64,000 nt of DNA from Candidatus Kuenenbacteria bacterium HGW-Kuenenbacteria-1 (GCA_002839745.1 PGYQ01000001.1:16775-80774), one strand, 5' to 3'. Counted from the first letter of the stretch, positions 1,424 through 59,825 are shown. Translations and numbers: made by a program. The notes: generated from the letters alone by a model not told the origin.

Positions 1424-2800
1424 ATGCTTAAAATTTATAACACTTTAACGCGAAAAAAAGAGGAGTTTAAATCAATTAAAAAAAACGAAATTGGACTTTA
1501 TACCTGCGGTCCAACTGTTTATAATTTTGCTCATATTGGTAATTTGCGAACATATATTTTTGAGGATATTTTAAATCGTGTTTTACTTTATAATCATTAT
1601 AAAGTAAAACATGTAATGAATATAACTGATGTTGGGCATTTAACAGGGGATCAAGATATGGGGGAAGATAAATTAGAAAAAGGAGCAAAAAAAGAAAATA
1701 AAACAGTTTGGGAAATTGTGGAATTTTATACTAAGGCATTTAAAGATGATTTAAAATTATTAAATATATTAGAACCTCATATTTGGTGTAAAGCGACTGA
1801 TTACATAAAAGAGCAAATTGATTTAATTAAAATTTTAGAAAAAAAAGGTTATACATATAAGACAAGCGATGGTATTTATTATGATACTTCAAAATTTAAA
1901 GATTATAATAAATTAAGTCATCTTGATTTAGAAACTTTGCAAGAAGGCGCGCGAGTTGAAAAAAATGAAGAGAAAAAAAATCCGACTGATTTTGCTTTAT
2001 GGAAATTTTCGCCCAAAGATTCTAAAAGACAGATGGAGTGGAATTCTACTTGGGGAATTGGTTTTCCTGGTTGGCATATAGAATGTTCGGCAATGAGTTT
2101 AAAACTTTTAGGCGATCAACTTGATATTCATTGTGGCGGGATGGATCATATTAATATTCATCATACAAATGAAATTGCTCAGTCTGAAGTAGCTACTGGG
2201 AAAAAGTTTTTTAATTATTGGATACATGGAGCTTTTTTAAATATTGCTGAAGGGAAAAAAATGGCAAAAAGCAAAGAGAATTTTCTTACATTAGAAAACG
2301 CTTTTATTAAACAAAATATTAACCCCTTGGTTTATAGGTTTTCAGTTTTACAAACGCATTATAGAAAGCCAATGGAATATAGCCAAAATGGAGCGGAAAA
2401 TGCTCAAAATGGGTTAGAGCATTTATATAATCAAATAAAAAAATTAGGCAAAGACATCGGCGATATTGATCATAATTTTAAAGAGAAATTTTTAAAAGCA
2501 GTAAATAATGATTTAAATATGCCACAAGCATTGAGCGTGGTTCAAGAATTATTAAAATCAGATATAGCTAACCAAGATAAATTAAAAACTATTTTAGATT
2601 TTGATAAGGTTTTGGGATTAAATTTGGGGAAAATAAAAATAAATAAAATTCCAAAAGAAATTTTAGATTTAGTTTCTCAACGAGAAAAGGCTCGTAAGAA
2701 AAAAAATTGGCAAAAATCTGATGAAATTCGTCAAGAAATTGAAAAATTGGGTTATCAAGTTGAAGACACAAAACAAGGTTCAAAAATAAATAGCATTTAA
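1424..2800 (+). CDS. cysS: Cysteine--tRNA ligase
   Basis: [16 protein letters not shown]-terminus, [17 protein letters not shown] (HIGH), KMAKSKENF (KMSKS); likely start is the second Met of ORF 1409..2800. Confidence 0.9.
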
Positions 2801-2866
2801 AAAAAGAAATTGTTAAAATTTAATAATTAATTTCTTTAGCGTTTTAATAAACCTAGAGCCTATTTT

Positions 2867-4030
2867 ATGAAAAAAATAATTGCCTTATCTATTATATTTT
2901 TTTGTTTTTTATTATTTCCATTTTCTTTTTCGCAAGCAATTGTCCAAAAAACAGGAGAAAGTATTCGTCTTAATTCAAATGAAATTATTGATGATGATTT
3001 TATTGCTTTCGGACAAAATATAGAAATTAATGGATTAATTAAGGGTGATCTTTTTGTTTTTGCCAAAAATATTACCATCAATGGAAATATTGAAGGAGAT
3101 GTTATTGGTTTTACTCAACAAATTACAATTAATGGAAATGTAAATGGGAATATTAGAATTTTAGGAGAAACTATAAATTTTAATAATCAAATAGATAAAA
3201 ATGTTAATGTTTTGGGACAAAATATTATTTTTTCTGAGAAAAGTAAGATTAAAAAAAATTTATTAATTTTGGGAGAAAGCATTGATGTAAATGGAAAAAT
3301 TGATGGCAATATTTTTGGCAATGGGAAAAAAATTTCTTTGGCCGGAGAAAATAATAAAAATGTTTATTTAAATACAACAGCTCTTGTTTTACAACCTAAA
3401 ACAATTATTAATGGAAATTTAGATTATGTTGCGTCTCAAAAAGCGGAAATAAAATCTGGCGCTCAAATTTTAGGAAAAACTTTGTATAAAATTCCATCCT
3501 TTGAAAAACAAGAAAAAAAATATACTATTGCTTTTTTCTTTTGGAAATTAGTTTCTTTGTTTGGGTTTTTAATTATTGGTTTAATTTTTATTTCTTTATT
3601 TCCTAAGAAAACATTGGAAATAATTAATCAAATTAAAAAAACGCCATGGAAAAATTTAGGCTATGGAATAATTTGTTTTATTGTTGTGCCGATAATCGCG
3701 CTTTTTTTAATTGCTATGCTCATTGGAATTCCATTGGCTTTTATTGGAATGTGTTTATATTTCATCTTTTTATATTTAGCTCAACTTTTTGTTGGTTTAA
3801 CAATTGGCGTAGAAATAGATAAAAAAATTAGAAAACCAAAAGAGATCGTTTTGCCAGCTGGCGAACAAGAACAAAAAAATAATTTAATTTGGCCAATGAT
3901 TTTAGGAATGATTATTTTAATAATTTTATTTAACATTCCTTATTTAGGTTGGGCTTTTAAATTAATAGTTATTTGTATGGGATTGGGAGGAATGATAGGG
4001 ATAGTTAAAAGTTCAAAGTGTAAAGTGTAA
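2867..4030 (+). CDS. Hypothetical secreted/membrane protein with bactofilin-like beta-helical I-x-I-N-G-N-I-x-G-D repeats and C-terminal multi-TM domain
   Basis: Signal peptide MKKIIALSIIFFCFLLF; repeats ITINGNIEGDV/ITINGNVNGNI/IDVNGKIDGNI with ~18-aa period; four hydrophobic helices at C-terminus; last codons are heptamer repeats (KSSKCKV). Confidence 0.5.
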   Translation: MKKIIALSIIFFCFLLFPFSFSQAIVQKTGESIRLNSNEIIDDDFIAFGQNIEINGLIKGDLFVFAKNITINGNIEGDVIGFTQQITINGNVNGNIRILGETINFNNQIDKNVNVLGQNIIFSEKSKIKKNLLILGESIDVNGKIDGNIFGNGKKISLAGENNKNVYLNTTALVLQPKTIINGNLDYVASQKAEIKSGAQILGKTLYKIPSFEKQEKKYTIAFFFWKLVSLFGFLIIGLIFISLFPKKTLEIINQIKKTPWKNLGYGIICFIVVPIIALFLIAMLIGIPLAFIGMCLYFIFLYLAQLFVGLTIGVEIDKKIRKPKEIVLPAGEQEQKNNLIWPMILGMIILIILFNIPYLGWAFKLIVICMGLGGMIGIVKSSKCKV

Positions 4031-4117
4031 AGTTAAAGAAATTTTAAATTTTTCTGTTATCTTAATCGAGGTTATATTTTGGTTTTGACACTCAAATATA
4101 ACAATAATTCTTTGCGC

Positions 4118-5972: not shown

Positions 5973-7568
5973 TTATTCTACAATTTTTCCATCAAATACA
6001 TTTAAAATATTATTTAAAAATTTATCTTGATTTTCTTCAAGAAAACCATTTTTTATAGGAAGAATTTCTGTTTTAAGAATAACTTTTTGTTTTAAAATAT
6101 CTTCTAAAATATTTTCAATTATTTCTTTATTTTTTCTATCATTAATTCTTTCCTGATAAAACTTATGTTCAAATCCAATTTGCAATATATTTTCTTTAAA
6201 GGAAAGTAACTCTGTTGTTCTTAAAAAAGTAAAAATAGAATGATTATGTTTTTTAATTTTTTCTAAAATTTTTCCCCATTTTTCTTTAATTTCTTCTAAT
6301 TTAATTTTAGATTCTTTATTTAAGGTTTCAGATTTCAGATTTTCTGTTTCATTATTTTTTGCTTTTCGCTTTTCGCTTTTCGCTTCATTGTTTTCTGGGC
6401 GTACGCAAGGGTATGCCCTTACAAAATTGTTTTTTTGTTCCATTGTTTTATTGTTTTCTTGTTCTATTATTTCATCATTTTCTATAATTTCTAAAATAGC
6501 TATTTCTAATGGCAATTGAATAATATCTGTTTCGCCTAATTCTTTTTGTGTTTTAATTAAAATTTCAATTGCTTTGCTTAATTTTTTTATATTGATTTTT
6601 TCCGTTAATTTTAAAATTTTCTTTTCAATTTCTTTATCCATTTCTTGAGAGAAGTTGTTAAGGTTGAGATCTATTTTTATTAATAAAATTTTTCGCATTA
6701 TTTCAATACAATCATTAATAAAATATTTTAAATCAATCCCTTGTTCTACTAATTTATTAATTAAAATTAAAGTGGCTTTTTTATTGTTTTCAAAAAGATG
6801 TTCTAATAATTCTAAAATTAAATTAAAGTTAGAGTGTGGGAGAATCAATTCGGCTTGTTCAAGATTTATTTCTTTTTCTCCTAAAACTAAAATTTGACCA
6901 AGAAGACTTTCGGCATTTCGAAGATATCCTTGGCTTTGATGAGCGATATTTTTTATAATTTGAGGATCAACTTTTATTTTTTCTAAATCACAAATTTTTT
7001 CTAATTTTTTTGTAATTTCTAAAAAATTAATTTTTTTAAAATTAAATTGTTGGCAACGAGAAATAATTGTTTCTGGGATTTTGTGAATTTCAGTGGTGGC
7101 TAAAATAAAAATAATATGAGCCGGTGGTTCTTCTAAAATTTTTAAAAGAGCGTTAAAAGCGGAAAGAGAAAGCATATGAGCTTCATCAATAATAAAAATT
7201 TTATAATTAAGATTATGAGGGATAAAACGGGAATTTTCAATAATATTTTCTCGAACATTATCTACTCCTGTTTGTGAAGCAGCATCAATTTCCATTATAT
7301 CTAAAGATTTTCCTTCGCTAATTTCATTACAAAAAGTACATTTATTACAAGGTTCTGCATCTTTTTTATTTCTGTTTTTACAATTAATCGCTTTGGCTAA
7401 AAGACGAGCGCAAGTGGTTTTTCCTGTTCCTCTAGGCCCAGAAAATAAATAGGCATGATTAATTTGATTAGTTTTAATTTGATTTTCCAAAGTAATTTTA
7501 ATATGATCTTGACCAACCAAATCTTTAAAAGTTTGTGGTCTATATTTTCGGTAAAGTGTTAAATTCAT
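5973..7568 (-). CDS. dnaX: DNA polymerase III subunit gamma/tau
   Basis: YRKYRPQTFKDLVGQDH...GPRGTGKTT Walker A, zinc module CNKCTFC; C-terminal half carries in-frame heptamer and palindromic insertions. Confidence 0.9.
   Translation of the reverse strand: MNLTLYRKYRPQTFKDLVGQDHIKITLENQIKTNQINHAYLFSGPRGTGKTTCARLLAKAINCKNRNKKDAEPCNKCTFCNEISEGKSLDIMEIDAASQTGVDNVRENIIENSRFIPHNLNYKIFIIDEAHMLSLSAFNALLKILEEPPAHIIFILATTEIHKIPETIISRCQQFNFKKINFLEITKKLEKICDLEKIKVDPQIIKNIAHQSQGYLRNAESLLGQILVLGEKEINLEQAELILPHSNFNLILELLEHLFENNKKATLILINKLVEQGIDLKYFINDCIEIMRKILLIKIDLNLNNFSQEMDKEIEKKILKLTEKINIKKLSKAIEILIKTQKELGETDIIQLPLEIAILEIIENDEIIEQENNKTMEQKNNFVRAYPCVRPENNEAKSEKRKAKNNETENLKSETLNKESKIKLEEIKEKWGKILEKIKKHNHSIFTFLRTTELLSFKENILQIGFEHKFYQERINDRKNKEIIENILEDILKQKVILKTEILPIKNGFLEENQDKFLNNILNVFDGKIVE
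6397..6418. repeat. GC-rich palindromic element (gggcgtacgcaagggtatgccc) inserted in-frame in dnaX
   Basis: Near-identical to the intergenic copy at ~28199-28220 (gggcgtacccttgcgtacgccc); encodes RAYPCVRP in DnaX linker. Confidence 0.6.
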
Positions 7569-24202: not shown

Positions 24203-25126
24203 ATGGATTTAAAAATATTAACTCAAAAAATTCAAGAACAAAATCGTTTTGTTTGTGGACATCGGACGTGCGCTGGTTGCGCTATTCCAATTATTGTTAG
24301 AACAATTTTGTCTGCCAGTAAAGATCCAGTGGTTGTTGTAAGCGCTACTGGTTGTCTTGAAATAGTTTCTAGCGTTTATCCTCAAACATCGTGGAATGTT
24401 CCATGGATGCACAATGCTTTTGAAAATACTTCTGCGACAATTTCTGGAATTGAATGTGCCTATTCTTTTTTAAAGAAAAAAGGGAAATTAAAAAAGAAAA
24501 TAAATTTTGTTGTTTTTGGCGGAGATGGCGGAACCTATGACATTGGATTGCAATCTTTGTCTGGCGCTTTGGAACGAGGGCATAATTTTGTTTATGTTTG
24601 CTATGACAATGAAGCCTATATGAATACTGGAAATCAACGATCTTCTTCAACGCCATATGGCGCGAGCACGACTACTACGCCAGAAGGAAAAACACATCAT
24701 GGGAAAGAAGTTTTTAAAAAAGATTTAATTAAAATTGTTGCGGCTCATAATATTCCTTATGTTGCTCAATCCGCTGTTCATTATTGGTCTGATTTATATC
24801 AAAAAGCTGAAAAGGCTTTTCAAGTTAATGGTCCGGCAGTGTTAAATGTTTTTTCGCCTTGTCAATTAAATTGGAAATTTCCTTGTGATTTAACAATTCA
24901 AATTTCAAAAATGGCTGTTGAAACTTGTTTGTGGCCTTTGTATGAAATAGAAAATAAACAATATAAATTAAATTATCAACCAAGAGAAAAGTTGCCAGTT
25001 GAAGAATTTTTAAAAATGCAAAAAAGATTCTCCCATCTTTTCAAACCAGAAAATAAAAAAATTATTAAAACAATCCAAGAGAAAGTGGATGAGAAATGGG
25101 AGGAGTTAAGAAATTATAAATTATAA
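24203..25126 (+). CDS. porB: Pyruvate:ferredoxin oxidoreductase beta subunit (TPP-binding)
   Basis: GHRTCAGCAIP and GGDGGTYDIG TPP motifs. Confidence 0.85.
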   Translation: MDLKILTQKIQEQNRFVCGHRTCAGCAIPIIVRTILSASKDPVVVVSATGCLEIVSSVYPQTSWNVPWMHNAFENTSATISGIECAYSFLKKKGKLKKKINFVVFGGDGGTYDIGLQSLSGALERGHNFVYVCYDNEAYMNTGNQRSSSTPYGASTTTTPEGKTHHGKEVFKKDLIKIVAAHNIPYVAQSAVHYWSDLYQKAEKAFQVNGPAVLNVFSPCQLNWKFPCDLTIQISKMAVETCLWPLYEIENKQYKLNYQPREKLPVEEFLKMQKRFSHLFKPENKKIIKTIQEKVDEKWEELRNYKL

Positions 25127-25340
25127 ATTAAGAAACCCCCTTAATCCCCCTTATCAGGGGGACAGAATTGATTAGCCCCTTCGATAAAGAAGTTGGGGAT
25201 TTAATTAGCCCCCTTGATAAAGGGGGTTGGGGGATTTCTTAAAGACAAAAGAAACCCCCTTAATCCCCTTTATCAGGGAGACTTTACGGAAGAAGGATTT
25301 TCAAAATTATTTTTATTTTTTGTAGAACATCCCAACCGTA
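25127..25340. repeat. Cluster of GC-rich palindromic repeats (aaaccccYttaatcYccYttatcagggRgac and attagcccccttgataaagggggttggggg families)
   Basis: Three or more hairpin units; shares tttttatttttttgtagaacatcc block and the tcccYttRtcagggagac unit with 28440-28556; unit also found in-frame at 39436-39476. Confidence 0.65.
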
Positions 25341-27999: not shown

Positions 28000-28650
28000 T
28001 ATATTGTTATTTTATTACATTTTAATTTAAAAATCTAATTAAAAGACTGACTGTGGGCGATTACATGGAATCGGCCTACAGGATTTTCCATTGAATTTTT
28101 TTACCATTTTGTAGGGGCGGGTTTTATGCCCGCCCTTTTTTTAGAGACCCTACGTAAAATTGTGTCTGATATAATAAAAATTATTATTGACGTATCCGTA
28201 GGGGCGTACCCTTGCGTACGCCCAGAAATAAAAAACAAATAATTTAATTTAATGGGAAATTTTGTAGGGGCGTATTACAATACGCCCCTACAAAATGCAA
28301 ATTGTTATGCAATACAATTCCGAAATTTTTTTCCTTTTCTTCCTTGCTTCTTTTCTTTTGCTTCTTCTTTTTAGCTAATTTTAGCTACTAGTCCATAGAC
28401 TGTTCTATGGACTAAGAAATTTTATTCCATTCTAAATTCTATTTTTTATTTTTTGTAGAACATCCTAATTGTAGAGTAGTGGGGTAGATGAGAGCCTCTG
28501 CTCTCATCTTTTCAGAAATTAAGAAACCCTCTAAATCTCCCTTGTCAGGGAGACTTTTTAGTAAATATAAAATGCTAAATTGTGTTAAATTATGTTGACA
28601 ATTATGTTAAATTGTGTTTGTAGTTTTTATTATTTTAGATTAAAATATAA
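28000..28650. repeat. Gene-free, GC-enriched region packed with palindromic repeat elements
   Basis: Hairpins gggcgggttttatgcccgccc, gggcgtacccttgcgtacgccc, ttttgtaggggcgtattacaatacgcccctacaaaa (15-bp stem), tagtccatagactgttctatggacta, gatgagagcctctgctctcatc, tctcccttgtcagggaga; copy A of the dispersed motif at 28144-28182. Confidence 0.65.
28144..28182 (+). repeat. Dispersed motif copy A (gagaccctacgtaaaattgtgtctgatataataaaaatt)
   Basis: Matches copies at 37511, 56161, 59804 and inverted copy at 37620. Confidence 0.7.
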
Positions 28651-28715
28651 ATGACTTGTGCGTATTTTTTCATTTTAAACGCACCAAACTAAAGTCAAAA
28701 GGAGGTGACAAAGAA

Positions 28716-29285
28716 ATGAAAAGGGTAATAATGACAATAGTCGTAATAATACTATCTGCTCAGGCAAGAGCAGACAGTATGTTATTTACGACTGACTGGG
28801 TAAGTGGAACCCAGTCGGTTTCCGGTGGCGGTATAGAGTTTAATTGTACCGTCACTGTCGACCCCAGCTCCACGGAAGGATGCTGGGGTGTGGATTTTTA
28901 TGGGAGTTTTGAAGGGCTAACAAACCTTCAATTTCCCATATCAGCGTTTTGCGTTCAGAGCAAAACGCTTTTCGGGATTGGGAATTTATGGGTCCCACCC
29001 GGAAATTCTTTCACATTTTCGTACGAGATGCCTAACTCGTATGAGGCCGTAAGAGGGACCGCCACCTCTTACGCATATGTTCCTGTTCCTATAGGCTTTA
29101 CTCCTGGGTTAATAGACCTAGGGGTTGAGGACTCAGATTCTATTTGGGTCCCTCGATTGCGACCTGTTGGGCAACCACCTAGTGGCAATGCTGTTCCCGA
29201 GCCATGTACAATGGCTCTACTGGGAATAGGCACGGTTGGCTTAGTGGGTCTTAGACAAAAAGGGGGCAGGATAGGCGCTAAATAA
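28716..29285 (+). CDS. Secreted PEP-CTERM-anchored protein, G+C-rich (foreign composition)
   Basis: Strong SD aaggaggtg 8 nt upstream; signal peptide MKRVIMTIVVIILSAQARA; C-terminal VPEP-CTMALLGIGTVGLVGL-RQKGGR is a PEP-CTERM sorting signal; visibly higher G+C than flanks. Confidence 0.6.
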   Translation: MKRVIMTIVVIILSAQARADSMLFTTDWVSGTQSVSGGGIEFNCTVTVDPSSTEGCWGVDFYGSFEGLTNLQFPISAFCVQSKTLFGIGNLWVPPGNSFTFSYEMPNSYEAVRGTATSYAYVPVPIGFTPGLIDLGVEDSDSIWVPRLRPVGQPPSGNAVPEPCTMALLGIGTVGLVGLRQKGGRIGAK

Positions 29286-32895: not shown

Positions 32896-33159
32896 TTTAT
32901 TTTTGCTATAATCCACTTTGGATTACGAAATGTAATTTAAGAAAGCGCCAAATGCAAAATTATAAATCCTAATCCGCTAGCTGGCGGACTTAAAAAAGTT
33001 GAAAGTTAAAAGTTAAAAGTTAAAAGTTATTGTATTCGTTTTGCTCATAAATAATAATAAAATTATTTGGTGCGAAGTAACACCTTAATTAAAAATTTAT
33101 AATTTCTTGCAAAGTATCTATTTTATTTATAATTTATAATTTAAAATTTATAATTTCTT

Positions 33160-36282: not shown

Positions 36283-36360
36283 TTGTCATTCCTTCGATGG
36301 CAATTAGAAATTTATTTAGTCCATGGACCAGTCTATGGACTATTGGCTAAAATTAGCAAT
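36283..36360. repeat. Palindromic repeat related to 14855-14945 and 28370-28420 elements
   Basis: ttttgtcattccttcgatggc and tagtccatggaccagtctatggacta / ggctaaaattagc units. Confidence 0.55.
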
Positions 36361-36649: not shown

Positions 36650-37539
36650 TTATTTTAATAATTTATTTTTAAAGTTAAATCCAAAATTTTTAGGACTAAA
36701 TAGTTTTAATCCTTTAGGTGTTCGCCATAATTTGCAACATTTTTTTCCAAAAACTTTCACCTTTTTATCTAAGGAAATATCACTATTATATAAAGGATAA
36801 TTATTAATATCTGTACATATAATTAAATCGGGGCAAGTCAGGATTATTTTTTTATTAATCCAAAATAGGAGATATTCATTTTTAATAAACAATCGTCCTT
36901 CTGAGTTTATATTTTTAATCCTAATATCTTTAGTAATAAACCCATTCTTTTCTTTTTCTTTTATAGAAGAAACTGTTCCTTCATATAATAATTTTAATTC
37001 TTCATTTTTAAAAGATCATTAAAATTATTAGAATTAATAATTTTGCCAATTTTCAAAGCTTCTGACACAGTGCCGGTTTCTATTTTCTTTTCCAAAGTTT
37101 TTTTAGAAAAAGGGTAACCCACAACAAAAGTTTTTTCTTTAGAAAAAGTTCGCAAAATTCTTTCCTCTTCTTTAAAAGAAATTGATTTAGTAAAAATTGC
37201 TATATTGCCTTCTGTTCCAACTAAAACAAGAGGTGTTCTATTTAGTTTAAAGAGACTAATTGTTTCCAAAAAAATTTCCGGAGCAGACTTTCCACCTACA
37301 AAATCTGCATCAACAATTGGTAATTTTAATTCTGAAGCTATAAAAAAAGCAGATGCTAACGAAGTTGGACCAATTTCTACTGGGATTATTCCTTTTACCT
37401 TCTTTCCTAAATAATTTAATAATTCTTTAACTCCTTTTTTAATATAAGTTACAGGATCAATGTCTTTTATGGATGATCCTACCCCAAAGGCCGTGATAAA
37501 TAAATAAAGAGAGACCCTACATAAAATTGTGTCTGGCAT
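36650..37539 (-). pseudogene. Hypothetical gene split by a -1/+2 frameshift at ~36995 (ORFs 36994..37539 and 36650..36892 are contiguous in shifted frames)
   Basis: Reading frame of ORF 36650..36892 stays open upstream to overlap the last codons of ORF 36994..37539 at an A/T homopolymer; N-terminal codons come from dispersed motif copy B. Confidence 0.45.
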
Positions 37540-37646
37540 AGTAAAAATGTATAATTAATTTTGTCATAATAGTTAAAGTGTTTTAATAATAAATTTAATA
37601 TTTATTCTAGATAAAAAAAGCTAGACACACTTTTATGAACGGTCCC
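37511..37646. mobile_element. MITE-like unit: dispersed motif copy B (37511-37549, direct) and diverged inverted copy B' (37620-37646) about 100 bp apart
   Basis: gagaccctacataaaattgtgtctggcatagtaaaaatg vs reverse-complement gggaccgttcataaaagtgtgtctagc. Confidence 0.45.
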
Positions 37647-37779
37647 TTTTTTTTTTCGCCATTGGACAATCCCAATCCGTTGGCATCTCATCCACCTCCG
37701 AGACCTTTTGCCATGGGGGTAAAAGATCGGGAACCCTCATTGCGATCCATGTTTTTAGATCGTCTTTTTTTATTTTCAT
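37602..37779 (-). CDS. Small (~58 aa) G+C-rich ORF with strong SD, homologous at its 3' end to the IS-remnant ORF at 56150 (coordinates approximate)
   Basis: aaggagg-N7-ATG; ...DCPMAKKKGTVHKSVSS parallels ...CSPRLQKKKETLHKIISG at 56150; likely a decayed transposase-associated fragment rather than a functional gene. Confidence 0.3.
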
Positions 37780-37990
37780 TTTTTTCCTCCTTAAAAATAG
37801 AATAGAATTTTTCCTTTTCAGAAATAAAAAATCCCTTCTGAAAAGGGATTGAGCGTGAAGAATAAAAATTTAAACAAAACCAATCACAACCAATCTCTTT
37901 TCAAAAGAATTGATTGTGATGATGTATATAAATATTATTTTTTATTAAAGCTTGTCGCATATATTTTAAAATAAAAATTTTTAGTCTTAC

Positions 37991-38407: not shown

Positions 38408-40870
38408 ATGCAACATCAAGGATTAAAAGAAAATGAAATTAAAAAATTAAGAGAAAAATTTGGGGAAAATTCTTTGCCAGCTGAAAAACAATTTTCTTTT
38501 ATAACAATTTTTTTCTCGCAATTTAAAAGTCCATTGATTTATATTTTATTTTTTGTCGGGCTGATTTCTTTATTTTTCAAAGAATATATTGACGCTGTTT
38601 TAATCGTTTTAGTTGGTTTATTTAACGCTTTGCTCGGTTTTTTTCAAGAATATAACAGTCAAAAAACCTTGGTTGCTTTAAAAAATATTATTAAACCTAA
38701 AGCGCTTGTTATTAGAGATGGTTGCAGAAAACAGATTGAAGCCAAAGAATTAGTGCCTGGTGATTTGGTTATTATTGGTTCTGGAGATAAAATTCCAGCT
38801 GACGGTGAATTGATTGAGAGTTTAAATTTGTTAGTTAATGAAGCGATTTTAACTGGCGAAGATGAGGCTGTTGCTAAAAAGTTAACTGATAATAAGTTGT
38901 TTATGGGCGCTACTGTTATTTGGGGTAATGGCATTATGAAAATTAGCAAAATTGGTCTTGATACTGAAATTGGTAAAATTGGTTCTAGTATAGTTGAAAT
39001 AAAAGAAAGTAAAACCCCAATACAAGTCGCGTTAGATAAATTCGCTAAAAATTTGTTATTTATAATTTTTATAATTTGTTTAATAATTTTTATTACTGGC
39101 GTGCTTTATCAGGAAAATTTTTGGGCAATGCTTAGAACCTCAATAGTGCTGTCAGCGGCTGCCATACCAGAAGGTTTACCAGTTGCTATTACTATTATTT
39201 TAACTTTGGGCATGAGACGAGTTTTAATTAAGAAAGGTTTAGTTAGAAAACTTTTATCAATTGAAACATTAGGATCAACTTCTGTAATTTGCGTTGATAA
39301 AACAGGAACATTAACTGAAGGAATTATGAAAGTTGTTAAGTCTGATTTTTTTGATAACGACAAGGCATTTTTGGCTTTAACATTGGTTAATAATCAGCGG
39401 ATGAATTTAGAAATAGCTCTTTGGGATTATGTAAGGAAAAATCCCTCTAACCCCCTTTATCAAGGGGGGACTGCTCAAGATCCACAGGAAATTTTTAACA
39501 GTCACTTGAGAATTTACGAAGAGCCGTTTGATAGCGAGAAAAAATACGCTTTAAGCATTAATAAAATAAATAATAAAAATACAGCTTTTGTTTTAGGAGC
39601 GCCGGAAATTGTTTTATCGTTTTGTCAATTATCAGCTCAAGAGTCAGTTGATACTTTAAAAAAAATAGATGATTGGGCCAGCAAGGGTTTACGGATTTTG
39701 GGAGTTGGTTTTAAAGAAAAAGGGGAGTTAAAAGAAAAAAAAGATTTTGTATGGTTAGGTTTGGTAGCAGTTGAAGATCCTTTGCGTTCAGGCGCTAAAG
39801 AGGCTATAGAACAAGCCATGCAAGCTGGTATTAAAATTAAAATTATTACAGGAGATCATAGCAAGACAGCTGAAAAAGTCGCTAGAAATTTAGGTTTTAA
39901 AATTGGACCAAACAATATTTTGTCAGGCAATGAGCTTGGCATGATTTCTGATCAAGAATTAAAAGACAGAATAGATGATATTATTTTATTTAGTCGTGTT
40001 TTGCCTCATCAAAAATTAAAAATAGTAGAAGCTTTGCAAGCTAAAAAAGAAATTATCGCTATGACTGGCGATGGAGTTAATGATGCTCTTGCTTTAAAAA
40101 AAGCGGATATTGGAGTAGTTATGGGCGCTGGTGCTGAAGTGGCAAAAGAAGTCGGGGATTTGATTTTATTAGACAATAATTTTAAAACCATTTTAACAGC
40201 TGTAGAAGAGGGCCGTTTAATTTTTTCTAATATCAAAAAGGTTGTTGCTTATGCCTTATCTAACGCTTTTGTTGAAATTGTTTTGATATTTGGAGCAATA
40301 ATACTTAATTTTCCTTTGCCATTAACAATAGCTCAAATAATATGGATTCAGCTTATTTGCGATGGTCCTCCTGATATTATATTAGGTTTTGAACCTAAGG
40401 ATAGAGATTTAATGAAAGAAAAGCCTATTGATAATAAAAAAGATGGTTTTTTATCTAAGTCTGTTATGTTTTTAATTATTGCTGTAAGTTTAAGCATTGG
40501 CTTATTAACTTTATTTTTATTCTGGTATTTTTATAATAGAACCAATAGTTTAATTTTAGCTCAAACTATTGCTTTTACTAGTGTTGCTTTTGTTGGTTTG
40601 TTTTATATTTTTTCTTTTAAAAATCTTTCTAAACCTTTATTTAAAATAAATAATTTCTTTGGTAATAAATATCTATTATGGAGCGTGCTTTACGGTTTTG
40701 TGTTAATTTTCGTCGCTTTATATGTTCCAGCTTTAAATAAAATTTTAAACACTGTTCCTCTTAATTTTTTTCACTGGCTGTTTGTTTTAGGGATTGCTAT
40801 TATTTCAATTTTGATTATTGAGATATTCAAGTTTTTTTTAATAAAAAAACAATTAGTATTAAAAATTTAA
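38408..40870 (+). CDS. P-type cation-transporting ATPase (P2-type, Ca2+/Mg2+-like)
   Basis: CVDKTGTLTEG phosphorylation motif, TGDGVNDALALKKADIGV hinge, 8-10 TM helices. Confidence 0.85.
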   Translation: MQHQGLKENEIKKLREKFGENSLPAEKQFSFITIFFSQFKSPLIYILFFVGLISLFFKEYIDAVLIVLVGLFNALLGFFQEYNSQKTLVALKNIIKPKALVIRDGCRKQIEAKELVPGDLVIIGSGDKIPADGELIESLNLLVNEAILTGEDEAVAKKLTDNKLFMGATVIWGNGIMKISKIGLDTEIGKIGSSIVEIKESKTPIQVALDKFAKNLLFIIFIICLIIFITGVLYQENFWAMLRTSIVLSAAAIPEGLPVAITIILTLGMRRVLIKKGLVRKLLSIETLGSTSVICVDKTGTLTEGIMKVVKSDFFDNDKAFLALTLVNNQRMNLEIALWDYVRKNPSNPLYQGGTAQDPQEIFNSHLRIYEEPFDSEKKYALSINKINNKNTAFVLGAPEIVLSFCQLSAQESVDTLKKIDDWASKGLRILGVGFKEKGELKEKKDFVWLGLVAVEDPLRSGAKEAIEQAMQAGIKIKIITGDHSKTAEKVARNLGFKIGPNNILSGNELGMISDQELKDRIDDIILFSRVLPHQKLKIVEALQAKKEIIAMTGDGVNDALALKKADIGVVMGAGAEVAKEVGDLILLDNNFKTILTAVEEGRLIFSNIKKVVAYALSNAFVEIVLIFGAIILNFPLPLTIAQIIWIQLICDGPPDIILGFEPKDRDLMKEKPIDNKKDGFLSKSVMFLIIAVSLSIGLLTLFLFWYFYNRTNSLILAQTIAFTSVAFVGLFYIFSFKNLSKPLFKINNFFGNKYLLWSVLYGFVLIFVALYVPALNKILNTVPLNFFHWLFVLGIAIISILIIEIFKFFLIKKQLVLKI
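39436..39476. repeat. GC-rich palindromic element inserted in-frame in the P-type ATPase
   Basis: aaaaatccctctaaccccctttatcaaggggggactgc matches intergenic family at 25141-25170, 25255-25285, 28520-28556; encodes NPSNPLYQGGTAQ. Confidence 0.65.
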
Positions 40871-43652: not shown

Positions 43653-44606
43653 ATGTTTTCTTTAAAACAATTAATTAATAATTTTTTAGAATATCTTGAA
43701 ATAGAAAAAAATCGTAGTCCAAAAACAATTAGAAATTATAAATTTTATTTAGAAAGATTTCTTAATTGGGCAAAGGAACCAAAACCAGAAGAAATTAATT
43801 TAGAAATGATTCGTCAATATCGGCTTTGGCTAAATCGATTTCAAAATTTAAGAGCAGAAGGTTTAAAAAAAGATACTCAAAATTATCATTTAATTGCTTT
43901 GCGTTCTTTTTTAAAATATCTCTCTAAAAGAGATATTCAAAGCTTATCTTCTGAAAAAATTGAATTAGCTAAAGTTTCTGAAAGATCAATAGAGTTTTTA
44001 GAAGGAAAAGATTTAGAAAATTTTTTGGAAGCACCATTCAAAGTTCAAAGTTCAAAATTCAAAGTTCAAAGTAAAAGAAAATTTGACCTCATTCAATTGA
44101 GAGATAAGGCAATTTTAGAATTATTTTTTTCTACTGGATTGCGAGTTTCTGAATTAATTAAATTAACTAAGGAACAAATTAATTTAGATAAAGATGAGTT
44201 TACAGTTCGAGGTAAAGGGAATAAACTAAGGATTATTTTTTTATCTCAGCAAGCTAAGTATTGGTTAAAAAAATATTTAGAAGCTAGAAATGATATGGAA
44301 ATTATTTTATTTATTAGGCATGATAAATTATCAAAAAATAAACAAATAAATAATTTAACTCCAAGAAGTATTCAGCGTCTTGTAAAAAAATATGCTAAAA
44401 TAGCCGGGATTACAAAAGAGATAACTCCTCACACAATCCGTCATAGTTTTGCTACAGATCTTTTAACAACTGGAGCTGATATACGTTCAGTGCAAGCTTT
44501 ATTAGGACACGCGTCTATTACAACGACTCAAATTTATACCCATGTAACAGATAAACATTTAAAAGAAGTTTATAGCGCTTTTCATGACAAAAGACGAAAA
44601 AAATAA
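43653..44606 (+). CDS. Tyrosine site-specific recombinase (XerC/XerD family)
   Basis: RHSFATDLLTTGADIRSVQALLGHASITTTQIYTHV catalytic R-H-R-Y region; carries in-frame heptamer repeat (FKVQSSKFKVQSK). Confidence 0.85.
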   Translation: MFSLKQLINNFLEYLEIEKNRSPKTIRNYKFYLERFLNWAKEPKPEEINLEMIRQYRLWLNRFQNLRAEGLKKDTQNYHLIALRSFLKYLSKRDIQSLSSEKIELAKVSERSIEFLEGKDLENFLEAPFKVQSSKFKVQSKRKFDLIQLRDKAILELFFSTGLRVSELIKLTKEQINLDKDEFTVRGKGNKLRIIFLSQQAKYWLKKYLEARNDMEIILFIRHDKLSKNKQINNLTPRSIQRLVKKYAKIAGITKEITPHTIRHSFATDLLTTGADIRSVQALLGHASITTTQIYTHVTDKHLKEVYSAFHDKRRKK

Positions 44607-44653: not shown

Positions 44654-44728
44654 GCCCTCGTAGTTCAGCGGATAGAACACCAGCCTTCTAAGCTGGTTAC
44701 GTAGGTTCGATTCCTGCCGAGGGCACCA
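44654..44728 (+). tRNA. tRNA-Arg (anticodon UCU)
   Basis: GCCCTCG/CGAGGGC acceptor, CCAGC-CTTCTAA-GCTGG anticodon arm, GGTTCGATTCC T-arm, encoded CCA. Confidence 0.8.
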
Positions 44729-56008: not shown

Positions 56009-56093
56009 GCCCAGGTGGTGAAATTGGTATACACGCTAGGTTAAGGACCTAGTACCGTGAGGTGTGGAGGTTCAAGTCCTCTCCTGGGCACCA
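56009..56093 (+). tRNA. tRNA-Leu (class II, long variable arm); anticodon loop reads TTAAGGA so anticodon AAG in my parse
   Basis: GCCCAGG/CCTGGGC acceptor, GGTGGTGAAATTGGTATACAC D-arm typical of tRNA-Leu, CTAGG-TTAAGGA-CCTAG anticodon arm, long variable arm, TTCAAGT T-loop, encoded CCA. Confidence 0.75.
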
Positions 56094-56149
56094 AATTGGA
56101 TTTCGTGATTTTTTGCGGGTGGAAGCAGAGGTTTGCTCGCCCCGCCTGC

Positions 56150-56334
56150 AGAAAAAAAAGGAGACCCTACATAAAATTATTTCTGGTATTCGGATTTCTT
56201 CCGAGCATGCTATCGCTGGCATTAAAAGATTGCGAATTGTAACTGACAAATTTAGGAATAAAACAAATAAATTTAATGATAAGGTTATGTTTTTAGCTTG
56301 TGGACTCTGGAATTATCAATTAAAATATTGCTAA
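56150..56334 (+). pseudogene. C-terminal ~60-aa remnant of an IS4/IS5-superfamily DDE transposase
   Basis: ...KETLHKIISGIRISSEHAIAGIKRLRIVTDKFRNKTNKFNDKVMFLACGLWNY: E-x7-K/R spacing and IAxIKRxRIxxDxFRNxxxxFxxxxxLAcxLxN pattern typical of DDE_Tnp_1 C-termini; N-terminal ~250 aa absent; embeds dispersed motif copy C (56161-56190). Confidence 0.5.
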
Positions 56335-56389
56335 TTCCAAAATTTATAAGGATAGTCTATCTTATTGAGTTATTCCGCAACTAGTTTAA

Positions 56390-57478
56390 TTATCTTTTTT
56401 TAATATCACCAGTTAAATTAAAGGTCTTATTTTTAGCCATCGAGAGAAACCGGCTTGCTGTTTTGCCTATTTCATCGCTGATATATTTTGCATTGCTATA
56501 TTGCGAGGGGTAGCCGACTAATTCCATAAAGCCGACACCGCTTACTTTTTTATTTTCAAACAAACCTTCCACGCGAAGCGGTCCCTCCCAATAGTTAATC
56601 GAACCAAATAGCATTTCCTGATTTTCAATTTTTGCCGTTAGGTTTAAATCAATATTTTTTGCCGGCATTTTGATTTTCCATGCCAATGGATAAACCGCCT
56701 TGCTCTTTGGACTTGTCCATCGTTCGTCCAAAGGAGTAATCTCGACTTCCTGATAATGTTCTTGGTGGTTATCCGCATAAGAAATATCCGCAAAGTAAGT
56801 TTTCACCTTGCCGTCATCATATAATCCGCAAACCATTTCTGTTTTATTGTCCAATTGCACCGAAAACCAATCCCATTTATCCTTGGAGTAACTCGCGTCC
56901 GCCCATTGATGATCCATCCACGATTTGCCGGTAACATCTATCCATTTGCCCTTAATTTTTATTCTGCCCTCTGTCTTTAAGTTAGTTAATGAATAGTAAT
57001 AGGTAGTTTTGGAATGGAGATCAAGGTATCCTTTTCCGCCCTCAAGCAGTGGCTTTTTAGTTGAAGTCAAAATTAAATCAATATCCTCGTTTTTTATGTG
57101 ATATGTTGATTCGCCGGTTTTTTCAATAACGCAGTTGGTATAACCGTTTTTGATTTCTGGATTAAGATAATTTATATAAAGCAGGGGCTTGGAAAAACTA
57201 TCGTCAGAAATGACAGAAAATGGGGCTATTCTATGGTGAAAACTTTTATGCTTTAAATCCGAAACAAGGGAATGAGAAAAATAAGATGTTTTAAGCGGTA
57301 TCTTGCTTAAAAATGGAATTTTTACTTTTTTAACATCCACTTTAAAAAAGCAATCCATAAAAGAATATCCGTTGCCGTCCTTGTCTTTTAAGTGACCGTT
57401 AAAATACCACCACTCAATTATGTAATTATGTCCTGATTCGTCTGCTGGGAATTTTATTGGTTTATATTCTTTATGCAT
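56390..57478 (-). CDS. AttH/CrtC-like lipocalin-fold predicted hydrolase (COG5621-like), G+C-rich
   Basis: NYIIEWWYFNGHL and GKSWMDHQWA motifs characteristic of the CrtC/AttH family. Confidence 0.55.
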   Translation of the reverse strand: MHKEYKPIKFPADESGHNYIIEWWYFNGHLKDKDGNGYSFMDCFFKVDVKKVKIPFLSKIPLKTSYFSHSLVSDLKHKSFHHRIAPFSVISDDSFSKPLLYINYLNPEIKNGYTNCVIEKTGESTYHIKNEDIDLILTSTKKPLLEGGKGYLDLHSKTTYYYSLTNLKTEGRIKIKGKWIDVTGKSWMDHQWADASYSKDKWDWFSVQLDNKTEMVCGLYDDGKVKTYFADISYADNHQEHYQEVEITPLDERWTSPKSKAVYPLAWKIKMPAKNIDLNLTAKIENQEMLFGSINYWEGPLRVEGLFENKKVSGVGFMELVGYPSQYSNAKYISDEIGKTASRFLSMAKNKTFNLTGDIKKR

Positions 57479-57504
57479 AAAACTATTTTTAAATTATAGA
57501 AGCA

Positions 57505-57699
57505 TTATGAGACGCTCCATTTTGTTATCGTAAACAATTTTAGTAATGGAGCGTCTGAAATGCTTTTATTGATTGAAGGGTGGCTTTTTTCTGACCATGC
57601 CCACCAAAGATAACCGCCAATGGCTATAACGGCGATTATTGCTATTCCAATTGTTGTTGGACTTGACCAATCTATGTTTGTTAGAAAATTTGTTGGCAT
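57505..57699 (-). CDS. Small hydrophobic membrane protein (64 aa)
   Basis: One TM helix TIGIAIIAVIAIGGYLWWAW; island cargo. Confidence 0.35.
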   Translation of the reverse strand: MPTNFLTNIDWSSPTTIGIAIIAVIAIGGYLWWAWSEKSHPSINKSISDAPLLKLFTITKWSVS

Positions 57700-57744
57700 A
57701 ATTTTACATCCTTTCTAATTAATCTATAAAACCCTTGAGGCGGG

Positions 57745-57960
57745 CTAATCCTCGACTTTTTTTGATTTTTTATATTCCTTTTCCCAAATAGGATCAAAAA
57801 CCTTAGCTAAATCTTTGTCATAATTTATCATTTTTTTGTTATATTCCTTGTCTTGCAAGGCCTGCTTTGCCGACTCATCAATAGGTTCAGGTTTATCTTC
57901 GTCAATAAATTCTCTCATTTTTTTATAATTTTTACTTTGAACTTGTTTTTTCAGTTTCAA
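57745..57960 (-). CDS. Hypothetical small charged protein (71 aa)
   Basis: ORF only; overlaps upstream 70-aa ORF by 29 nt. Confidence 0.3.
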   Translation of the reverse strand: MKLKKQVQSKNYKKMREFIDEDKPEPIDESAKQALQDKEYNKKMINYDKDLAKVFDPIWEKEYKKSKKVED

Positions 57961-58144
57961 AATTCTTTAAGAATAATTTGGTAGCTTCGATTTCTGCCTG
58001 ATTTCCGACCTTTATTATTTTTTCTATAATTTCCCACTGCTCATCTCGGTATTTTTTACCTTTGATTTTGCCGTGAAAATTATCCAACACCAACATTTCA
58101 AACTCGTTGATGTGTTTTACTAATTTTGAATTTGTTTCTATCAT
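57932..58144 (-). CDS. Hypothetical small protein (70 aa)
   Basis: ORF only; possible two-gene module with 57745..57960. Confidence 0.3.
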   Translation of the reverse strand: MIETNSKLVKHINEFEMLVLDNFHGKIKGKKYRDEQWEIIEKIIKVGNQAEIEATKLFLKNFETEKTSSK

Positions 58145-58316
58145 AAGTTTATTTATTTAATTTTTTAGTCAAAGTGTCCAAACTTATAATTAAATATATT
58201 TGAATATATCGGCCCAAATAAAATAAGATGCACTTCAACAGCAAGATATTTTGTGGCGATATTAAAACGTCCATCCTTATCTAGCCTTCTGACAGATACG
58301 GGTATTTGAATACTTT

Positions 58317-58865
58317 TCAAAAAATCGAATTTCTCAATTCTCTGCCTATCCTTAAAACGTAATCGTGGTCTTCGGCTAATTTAATTTTTTCATCAAAGCC
58401 ACCTATTAATTGATGGACTTCTTTCTTGGCAAAGATACAAAAACCTGGCGCATGAGAAAACCTTTTTTTAGTTGCCTGAAAATATAAATTAACTGCGCCA
58501 TGCAAAAACTTATCTATTTTTCTGTCGCTCAAGGGATTAATCAAACAAGAAGCGGAAGAAAGAGTTGAACCGTTAATTTCTTTAACAGCCTTCTCTAAAA
58601 AATCAGGCGGTAAAATTACATCAGCGTCTAAAAACAATAGCCACTCACCACGAGCAACCTTAGCGCCATTATTACGACCGCAAGCCGGCAATCCGCCCCC
58701 AACCACTTTTGCTCCGCTTTTTAAAGCAATCAAGCGTGTAGTATCAGTTAAATTATTGTCGGCCACAATAATTTCAAAATCTTTAAATACCTGATCTTTA
58801 AGAGATTTTAAAAGATGCGGTAAAAATTTTTCTTCGTTGAAAGTTGGAATAACAATGCTTAACAT
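58317..58865 (-). CDS. Family 2 glycosyltransferase (short, 182 aa)
   Basis: MLSIVIPTFNEEKFLPHLLKSL N-terminus and LFLDADV (DxD) motif. Confidence 0.7.
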   Translation of the reverse strand: MLSIVIPTFNEEKFLPHLLKSLKDQVFKDFEIIVADNNLTDTTRLIALKSGAKVVGGGLPACGRNNGAKVARGEWLLFLDADVILPPDFLEKAVKEINGSTLSSASCLINPLSDRKIDKFLHGAVNLYFQATKKRFSHAPGFCIFAKKEVHQLIGGFDEKIKLAEDHDYVLRIGRELRNSIF

Positions 58866-58876
58866 AAATTTATGAT

Positions 58877-59464
58877 TTAAAATAAAATCGTAACAATTTG
58901 ATTAGATACTTTTTCAGAGTCAATTTTTTTATTTAAAAAAGAATACTCCAAAAGTAATCCGTCCATCATACCAGTAAGCAAAGATGTTAATAATCGACTA
59001 TCAACTTTTTTATTTAATTTTTTGCTTGAAAAAACTTCCTCTATCACTGGCTGAATTACATTAGCAACCTGTTCTCTTAATTTTTCGGTTCGCTTTGTTA
59101 TTTTAGAGTCAGCTGGCGAAAGTTTTACAACTAAAGCCTTGATAAGATTTTTTTCCTTAAAACCAAAATCTAAATAATTTTTAATTATTTTGTGCAATTT
59201 TTTATCAACCGCAGTTTCGCTTAATGCTTGAGTAAGGGTTAGATTTAAATCATTAAAAACATTATCAATCACTTTTCCATAGATTTCTGCTTTGCCGGTG
59301 AAATGATAATAAAGCGCAGCTTTGGTAATATTTAATTTTTTTGCAATATCATTCATTGAAACACCCAAATAGCTATATTCAGAAAAAAACTTACGGGCTG
59401 TATTAATGATGTGATTCTTGGTGTCTTGAATAACACCCTCAGATTTTTTTGCAATTATTTCCAT
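58877..59464 (-). CDS. TetR/AcrR-family transcriptional regulator
   Basis: N-terminal HTH ARKFFSEYSYLGVSMNDIAKKLNITKAALYYHF. Confidence 0.8.
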   Translation of the reverse strand: MEIIAKKSEGVIQDTKNHIINTARKFFSEYSYLGVSMNDIAKKLNITKAALYYHFTGKAEIYGKVIDNVFNDLNLTLTQALSETAVDKKLHKIIKNYLDFGFKEKNLIKALVVKLSPADSKITKRTEKLREQVANVIQPVIEEVFSSKKLNKKVDSRLLTSLLTGMMDGLLLEYSFLNKKIDSEKVSNQIVTILF

Positions 59465-59486
59465 ATTTTTTATAATTTTATTATTG

Positions 59487-59510
59487 TATACTTACCACTC
59501 GGTAAGTATA
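59487..59510. promoter_or_regulatory. Perfect palindrome TATACTTACC-ACTC-GGTAAGTATA immediately upstream of tetR start (candidate TetR operator)
   Basis: 10-bp arms, 4-bp spacer, 23 bp from the tetR ATG on the minus strand. Confidence 0.55.
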
Positions 59511-59803
59511 TCAGAAAGGATAAATATCTGTCAAGCAAAAATTTACAAAGACGATAATATTTGTTAAACTTATAATTAAGAAATAGTTTTAGGCGGCGCG
59601 CCAGCTTTGCTGGCACGAAAAATTGCGGCGGCGAAAAAAGAAGCGGCGAAAGCGAGGGCGGGCAAAAATTCCTTCCTCCCAACCCTCTTCCTTTTTGCCC
59701 GCCCGAGCGTTCGGTTTCGGTTCTGCTACGCGAAACGCGGCAATCAGTCAGTTTCGTTCAAAAAAAAGGTTCGCGCATTTTCAAACAATGGGCACCAAAT
59801 TGG

Positions 59804-59825
59804 AGACCCTACAAAAAAAATTATA
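59804..59825 (+). repeat. Dispersed motif copy D (gagaccctacaaaaaaaatta) fused to the tRNA-3'-end direct repeat
   Basis: Same 11-nt core gagaccctaca as copies A/B/C. Confidence 0.6.

Follow-up and report, generated by a model that had tools for sequence, protein, structure and literature searches.

GTAG-tagged REPs and REPINs are mobilized by RAYT (Y1) transposases (Di Nocera et al. 2013, PMC3733652; Bertels and Rainey 2011, PMC3116915). Other described systems with which the present locus can be compared are MITE and foldback elements, such as imperfect palindromes of the Correia and ERIC-like type, IS5-family elements, and tRNA-targeted genomic islands. Here, we describe a short motif that is dispersed through a window of 64,000 nt, the whole stretch of DNA that was analyzed, from Candidatus Kuenenbacteria bacterium HGW-Kuenenbacteria-1, a CPR/Patescibacteria MAG from groundwater. 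The G+C content of the window is about 27%, and the RecA and MiaA proteins that it encodes show 100% identity to those of HGW-Kuenenbacteria-1. In our preferred reading, to which we give somewhat less than even confidence, the motif forms the terminal repeat of a small, lineage-specific, noncoding family of MITE/REPIN-like foldback elements in this organism.

Flanking DNA of the source contig, which was reached via proteins encoded in the window, added 9.4 kb on the left and 9.9 kb on the right, for about 83 kb in total. Chance levels were taken from 40 first-order Markov simulations of the window. Furthermore, we compared three assemblies of the same population (JGI 3300029891, ENA ERZ27239245, and Logan SRR3546457), which in their overlaps are 100% identical to the window except at one site, the foldback between motif copies B and B'. 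Wider scans covered JGI metagenome contigs (with a 20-mer), one genome per GTDB species (with an 18-mer), and IMG/VR; the source genome is absent from all of these collections.

An earlier note on this DNA had reported five dispersed copies of the motif. All five exceed chance expectation, and they are located as follows.

28144 to 28181, plus strand: motif copy A, 161 nt upstream of the divergent miaA start
37511 to 37539, plus strand: motif copy B, which serves as the reference and forms the foldback's left outer end
37622 to 37646, minus strand: motif copy B', the right outer end of the foldback, followed by T10
56161 to 56189, plus strand: motif copy C, whose left ~14 nt match the motif consensus and which is IS sequence from position 19
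59803 to 59824, plus strand: motif copy D, GAGACCCTACAAAAAAAATTAT, 98 nt upstream of recA

The 25-mer GAGACCCTACATAAAATTGTGTCTG is matched exactly by B at 37511, with one mismatch by A at 28144, and with two mismatches by C at 56161, where none would be expected. The inverted copy B' differs from it at five positions (20/25 identity). Across the 40 simulated windows, the mean number of matches to the 25-mer with six or fewer mismatches was 0.0, as was that of the exact 11-mer. This 11-mer, GAGACCCTACA, is what copy D retains without change (none expected), followed by AAAATTAT after a 2-nt length difference. Copy D is thus real, with its start at 59803 instead of the 59804 first given. In addition, a profile search of the flanks recovered a sixth copy, E (GAGACCCTACATAAAATTT; L018 5141-5159), which is on the minus strand at a distance of about 4.2 kb from the left end of the window; the same search of the 9.9 kb to the right of the window recovered none.

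The copies have a characteristic asymmetry. All six share an 18-nt core, GAGACCCTACATAAAATT, and all six have a sharp 5' edge at GAGACC. On the 3' side, similarity ends variably, after 19 nt in E, about 22 nt in D, 26 to 29 nt when A or B is compared with C (29 nt for A, 26 nt for B), and about 38 nt when A is compared with B. Given these figures, the size of ~26 to 45 bp initially proposed is fair. Beyond the motif, A and B have in common the non-IS sequence ATARTAAAAAT, and A, B, and B' share a continuation that differs from the IS sequence found at C. Every copy is intergenic or lies at the edge of a pseudogene. Scans of the JGI metagenome, GTDB-species, and IMG/VR collections with 18- to 20-mers returned only isolated chance matches in unrelated organisms, none of which could be extended, and because of this the family seems to be confined to this lineage. 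Rfam searches at gathering and permissive thresholds returned tRNAs and sub-threshold noise only, with no match to a noncoding RNA.

The positions of the copies could suggest a regulatory DNA site, that is, a promoter element or operator, and a conserved promoter had been named beforehand as the alternative account of the motif. Specifically, the copies are intergenic or at a pseudogene edge, D lies just upstream of recA, A and E each precede the start of a divergent gene, miaA or tsaC/sua5, by 161 to 162 nt, and a TG-n-TATAAT sequence follows B. However, a consensus scan placed no sigma-70-like site on the motif, and none of the predicted sites makes use of it. The distance from the motif to a -10-like hexamer varies between copies (e.g., A versus B), and C and E face convergent genes. 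A promoter-like TTGATA-N17-TATTAT for recA lies downstream of D, with a similar one in relatives that are free of the motif, and the motif itself is absent from related genomes. We consider a regulatory role very unlikely.

Copies B and B' form an inverted pair.

37511 to 37646, no strand assigned: B..B' foldback; the window has a 136-nt version, the JGI and ENA assemblies a 192-nt version

The earlier suggestion that B and B' make up a MITE-like inverted pair holds up: the 136-nt segment is predicted to form a long hairpin (DNA fold z -4.0), and the 192-nt version is an imperfect palindrome (fold z -6.2) whose arms can be aligned past the motif, for about 90 nt in all (p 0.03). Each of the two inverted arms is about 95 nt long, with the motif as its outermost 25 nt. 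The two versions differ by 56 nt, which are extra in the spacer (37600-37610) of the JGI and ENA contigs (L020 and L029) and are bounded by short ATAA(T)AAAA repeats. Over about 45 kb of comparison with the JGI contigs, this indel is the only structural difference from the window; the remaining differences are a single mismatch and a single gap. In the ENA assembly, contig ERZ27239245 k141_15246 (L029 1-137) carries the 3' end of an IS256-family transposase gene (Zn-binding variant) joined at the center of the palindrome, at about 37583. The join indicates a polymorphic and probably recent IS256-family insertion. The JGI and ENA assemblies both break at the foldback, which this insertion explains.

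Like MITE and foldback elements, B..B' is 136 to 192 nt long, AT-rich, and noncoding, its terminal inverted repeats are better conserved than its interior, solo ends occur elsewhere, and it is tied to gene disruption. Unlike MITEs, it has no target-site duplication (its flanks read ...ATAAAGA|GAGACC and GGTCCC|TTTTTTTTTT), it is the single complete copy seen, with one full-length foldback and four solo ends in about 83 kb, and no parent IS with ends matching the motif was found within that span.

The left end of the foldback abuts a damaged gene.

36650 to 37503, minus strand: DUF917 (S-Me-THD-like) pseudogene, with a frameshift near 36994 and the first ~55 codons missing, its truncation abutting B

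DUF917 homologues are about 340 aa long and align from residue 54 to 57, with homology in the window beginning at 37503. Because the homology starts so far into the protein, the ATG within the motif is not the true start, and the motif marks the point of truncation. The proposal that the motif supplies the start codon of the gene at 36650..37539 is therefore not borne out, and the annotated "start codon" of 36994-37539 is an artifact. On the far side of the foldback, tblastn and a profile of homologue N-termini detected no remnant of the DUF917 N-terminus. The sequence directly to the right of B' (37647-37790) has a G+C content of about 50% and no Pfam, transposase, or DUF917 match. We considered whether this stretch is the missing N-terminus, which would make B..B' a simple insertion, and rejected the idea as unproven; the likeness was a by-eye "GSRSF..GLGGG" only and was not significant by tblastn or profile. 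Within the same region, the G+C-rich ORF at 37633-37779 has no Pfam match and no transposase match, and the stretch at 37602-37779 that had been described as homologous to a transposase is the B' motif and an A-run read in frame.

A second line of evidence connects the motif with hairpins of the GTAG type, most of which are clustered beside copy A.

28111 to 28137, plus strand: GTAG-type REP-like hairpin, directly 5' of copy A and followed by T7; fold z -3.8
28198 to 28225 and 28259 to 28296, near copy A: REP-like hairpins; fold z -3.1 and -9.2
6392 to 6422, minus strand: REP-like hairpin of the GTAG type
59656 to 59704, plus strand: GGGCGGGC...GCCCGCCC hairpin of the GTAG type, about 100 nt 5' of D; z -4.5

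The three GC-rich hairpins beside A begin with GTAGGGGCG, and the consensus of the hairpins is ATTTT-GTAGGGGCG...CGCCCCTAC-AAAAT. In the DNA folds, which are strong, GTAG is left unpaired at the 5' end of the hairpins at 28111 and 28198, and pairing is complete in the third. Such folding agrees with how GTAG-tagged REPs have been defined (Di Nocera et al. 2013, PMC3733652). On the opposite strand, the motif reads AATTTTAT-GTAGGG-TCTC, and in D it reads TTTTTTTT-GTAGGG-TCTC. Consequently, the tag ATTTT(N0-2)GTAGGG is common to the motif and to the REP hairpins at 28111, 28264, 28291 (minus strand), and 6422 (minus strand). GTAGGG occurs at nine sites in the window: four in REP hairpins, four in motif copies, and one in background. 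Directly 5' of the motif, copies A, C, and B' each have a homopolymer run of 7 nt or more (P about 1.6e-5), and GC hairpins adjoin the motif at A, where the hairpin carries the tag, and at C, where it does not. A hairpin beside B' was not significant (z -1.5).

As in GTAG REPs and REPINs, the motif has a GTAG(GG) tag after ATTTT, is intergenic, occurs once as an inverted doublet that makes a long hairpin, and is otherwise found as solo copies. Unlike those elements, the 25-mer has no stem-loop (-1.0 kcal/mol, z -0.9), for which reason it is not a canonical REP, and about 83 kb holds few copies and no RAYT. The position of the tag also differs, being at the outer 3' end of each motif arm versus 5' of the stem in REPs. 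A tblastn search of the window together with L008 and L018 (83 kb) found no RAYT gene. A related Kuenenbacteria contig encodes a RAYT-like Y1 transposase (L016 4325-4933; NCBIfam REP_Tyr_transpos, E 1.7e-17, which is below the curated cutoff), and this gene is flanked by AGGGGACWGTCCCCT hairpins. Because of that gene and its hairpins, REP/RAYT-type systems may exist in this CPR lineage.

Several other observations concern repeats in the same DNA. One of the GTAG hairpins is a perfect 38-nt palindrome, the GTAG hairpin with a trailing T7 scores as an intrinsic terminator, and a related species has a GTAG hairpin 25 nt upstream of recA (L015 924-955). A second family of hairpin repeats, AAGAAACCCCCTTAATCCCCCTTATCAGGGGGAC, is found at 25125-25163, 25244-25282, 28516-28554, and 39431-39469. 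A 151-nt repeat with 91% identity links 25192-25340 to L018 1555-1704, about 7.7 kb left of the window. The arms of a 50-nt inverted repeat (28374-28423 and 36308-36357; 86% complementary) bracket some 8 kb between A and B, and each arm contains a AGTCCATAGAC...GTCTATGGACT hairpin. Short intergenic arrays of AAAGTT/AAAAGTT occur at 1372-1414, 4003-4045, 32997-33039, and 44042-44084, one of them directly after tRNA-Cys. Finally, the ORF at 28656-29285, in a G+C-rich patch by the REP cluster, has a PEP-CTERM sorting motif (Pfam E 1.5e-4) and looks foreign.

The motif had originally been linked to decayed transposases, and at copy C this link is real.

56171 to 56390, plus strand: remnant of an IS5-family (DDE_Tnp_4) element, comprising the last 54 transposase codons (stop at 56332-56334) and the right end

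The ORF at 56062-56334, which had been read as the C-terminus of an IS4/IS5-like DDE transposase, matches the C-terminal third of Pfam DDE_Tnp_4 (positions 99-158 of 158, E 5e-5). Its database relatives are all short fragments, one of which lies within a near-complete element, L001, from a groundwater metagenome (about 2327-3384). This element encodes HTH_Tnp_4 and DDE_Tnp_4 domains with one in-frame stop, and the best NCBIfam match of its transposase is transpos_IS5_4. When the 307-aa L001 transposase was used as a tblastn query, residues 254 to 307 aligned at 56170-56331 (E 1e-25, 83% aa identity), and this was the only significant match in the window, L008, L018, and L020. At the DNA level, 56171-56390 is 83.7% identical to L001 3164-3383, past the stop codon and into the right inverted repeat, with which the right end of the remnant, ...CCGCAACTAGTTTA, aligns. 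The region thus corresponds by homology to the 3' 220 bp of an IS5-family element (transpos_IS5_4), with the right inverted repeat and the C-terminal part of the transposase gene; of the left end and the first ~250 codons, nothing remains. Judged by homology, then, C is joined to a genuine IS5-family remnant consisting of the last ~220 bp of such an element.

Within C itself, IS homology starts at about 56167-56171, and the IS has no counterpart of the leftmost ten bases, GAGACCCTAC. Where the two sources can be told apart, C agrees with the motif to about nt 14 and with the IS from nt 19. Because of this switch, C looks chimeric, joined in a common A(A/G)AATT patch, and we tentatively read it as a chimera of the motif with a truncated IS.

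What holds at C does not extend to the rest of the family. For A, B, B', D, and E, and likewise for another 20 kb of the genome, no traces of transposase or IS DNA beyond 29 nt were detected. The proposed link between motif and transposase fragments thus stands for C and is not supported for the other copies. The ends of the L001 element, TAGACTTGTTG... and ...CAACCAGTCTA (TAGACTKGTTG), show no resemblance to the motif in either orientation (p 0.12 to 0.9) and differ from the ends of the foldback. In the register of the junction, B agrees with the IS interior at 14 of 20 positions and A at 12 of 20, and a shuffled B arm reaches 15 to 17 of 20 somewhere on the IS. Since shuffled sequence scores as high, the likeness of A and B to the IS interior is AT-rich background. 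Relative to IS5-family elements, therefore, the likeness is limited to copy C, and the motif is neither an IS terminus nor demonstrably part of the coding sequence, contrary to the earlier note's view that it marks the ends or internal remnants of one degenerate IS family. Two further candidates were rejected: an inverted motif copy near the right end of the IS was not significant, and a reading of copy A as a REP-invaded copy of the whole IS 3' fragment rested on a patch, AAAACAAATAA-TTTAAT (p 0.01), but colinear alignment past the motif was not significant.

The same junction gives rise to the main rival of the preferred reading, which we rank below it and regard as possible though rather unlikely. 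Under this alternative, all motif copies would descend from a single junction at which an IS5-family copy, truncated at about codon 250, was fused to ...GAGACC(CTAC), with later deletion of the IS. In keeping with such descent, C runs continuously from the motif into 220 nt of IS, and a direct count without gaps, starting at CTACAT, gives 16 identities to the L001 IS in 20 positions. Of 11 positions in the IS-derived stretch of C, A and B share 8, somewhat above chance, and, like the IS, E has ATT-TTTCA and D has ATTAT. The 8/11 agreement and the ATT-TTTCA of E therefore keep this rival alive. It is weakened, however, by the lack of detectable IS DNA beyond 29 nt at A, B, B', D, and E, by A and B scores against the IS (12 to 14 of 20) that fall within the shuffled range, and by the different continuation of A, B, and B' after the motif. 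Moreover, no way is known for a 5'-truncated fragment without its left inverted repeat to disperse, and one fixed edge combined with one variable edge is unlike one-ended transposition.

Copies C and D also lie close to a duplicated piece of a tRNA gene.

56009 to 56093, plus strand: tRNA-Leu(AAG), whose last 9 nt, together with 7 downstream nt (56085-56100), recur at 59789-59804
56101 to 56160, plus strand: GC-rich hairpin with a terminal A8, separating the tRNA-derived repeat from C, with GGA on both sides; z -2.4
59789 to 59804, plus strand: second, exact copy of the 16-bp tRNA-Leu-derived direct repeat

The 16-bp repeat TGGGCACCAAATTGGA is exact at 56085 and 59789, and its second copy overlaps the start of D, as expected from the initial description of D as abutting a tRNA-derived repeat. 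At the right copy, the motif (D) follows the repeat immediately; at the left copy, the motif (C) follows past a 58- to 60-nt hairpin insert. Were that insert removed, a 3.7-kb segment (56101-59788) would be flanked by an imperfect direct repeat of about 36 nt. The segment has a G+C content of 32 to 35% and encodes a CrtC/AttH-like lipocalin protein, a truncated GT2 glycosyltransferase, and a TetR regulator; no integrase was found among its ORFs. Relatives have other genes upstream of recA, and because the neighborhoods of RecA and MiaA relatives are rearranged, no empty site can be defined. Like tRNA-targeted genomic islands, the locus has the 3' end of tRNA-Leu duplicated around a GC-richer accessory segment, with the motif adjoining both repeats. 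Unlike such islands, it has no integrase, only 9 nt of the tRNA are repeated, and the motif also occurs at tRNA-free loci.

One could accordingly imagine the motif as the att-like core site of an integrase that inserted the 3.7-kb segment by tRNA-Leu, in which case the other copies would be secondary sites or scars. The 16-bp repeat does run into the motif at D, and at C as well if the GGA-bounded hairpin insert is removed, and a recombination site would likewise show a conserved core between flanks that are unrelated. In addition, the window encodes a Xer-like tyrosine recombinase (43653-44606). Yet the segment itself has no integrase, A, B, and E have no adjacent tRNA-like sequence, the motif lacks dyad symmetry of the dif or att-core type, and the longer homology between the arms of B and B' would be left unexplained. 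On balance, we regard an att-like core as improbable. The Xer-like gene (Phage_int_SAM_1 and Phage_integrase domains) lies immediately upstream of tRNA-Arg (44654-44728).

Taken together, our results are most consistent with a family of MITE/REPIN-like foldback elements for which the motif is the terminal repeat. This reading was favored because the copies have a sharp 5' edge with variable 3' decay, one pair forms a foldback, and the continuation shared by A and B is not IS sequence. It was also favored because the tag accounts for eight of the nine GTAGGG sites, homopolymers and GC hairpins lie alongside, the foldback is polymorphic, and a relative encodes a RAYT-like protein. In addition, the IS ends are unlike the motif, the likeness of A and B to the IS is at chance level, and C is split between motif and IS. 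Counted against it were the single foldback in about 83 kb, the lack of a target-site duplication, the 25-mer without a stem-loop, the lack of a RAYT in 83 kb, the lack of the motif in the other scanned genomes and metagenomes, and the 8/11 agreement in the IS-derived part.

If the motif is the end of such an element, the B..B' foldback would be its only complete member, and A, C, D, and E would be solo or truncated ends. The element would presumably be nonautonomous and mobilized in trans, possibly by a RAYT-type Y1 transposase. Its copies may, in addition, have served as substrates for illegitimate recombination. One copy, downstream of tRNA-Leu, may have recombined with a nearby IS5-family element over a short AAATT-type patch to give C, and the IS would have lost its first three quarters in this event. 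The element at B would mark the deletion of the 5' end of the DUF917 gene. The copies could thus have acted as breakpoints in the truncation of a gene, the truncation of an IS, and an insertion next to tRNA-Leu.

A more ambitious proposal is that the motif and the GTAG hairpins together form a live REPIN/RAYT-type system, or a new foldback-MITE system, in which a Y1 transposase or other recombinase reads the terminal tag. We think this doubtful. Were it true, the copies would drive gene truncation, the shuffling of an island by tRNA-Leu, and the capture of IS fragments in a very small genome. Most likely, the repeat is ordinary genomic debris, a known kind of feature and not a new system or mechanism.

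Even so, the findings have uses for annotation. The ORF of 71 to 90 codons at 56062-56334 (71 aa in the JGI record) is better labeled as an IS relic, and contigs can be seen to break at motif and foldback sites. More generally, if the preferred reading is correct, these repeats would mark the sites of gene truncation, of IS breakage, and of the insertion of an accessory segment next to a tRNA gene. A reduced CPR genome would then have its own nonautonomous repeat families, consisting of GTAG hairpins along with a foldback that bears a related tag, which would be a modest addition to what is known of the spread of REP-like elements outside Proteobacteria.
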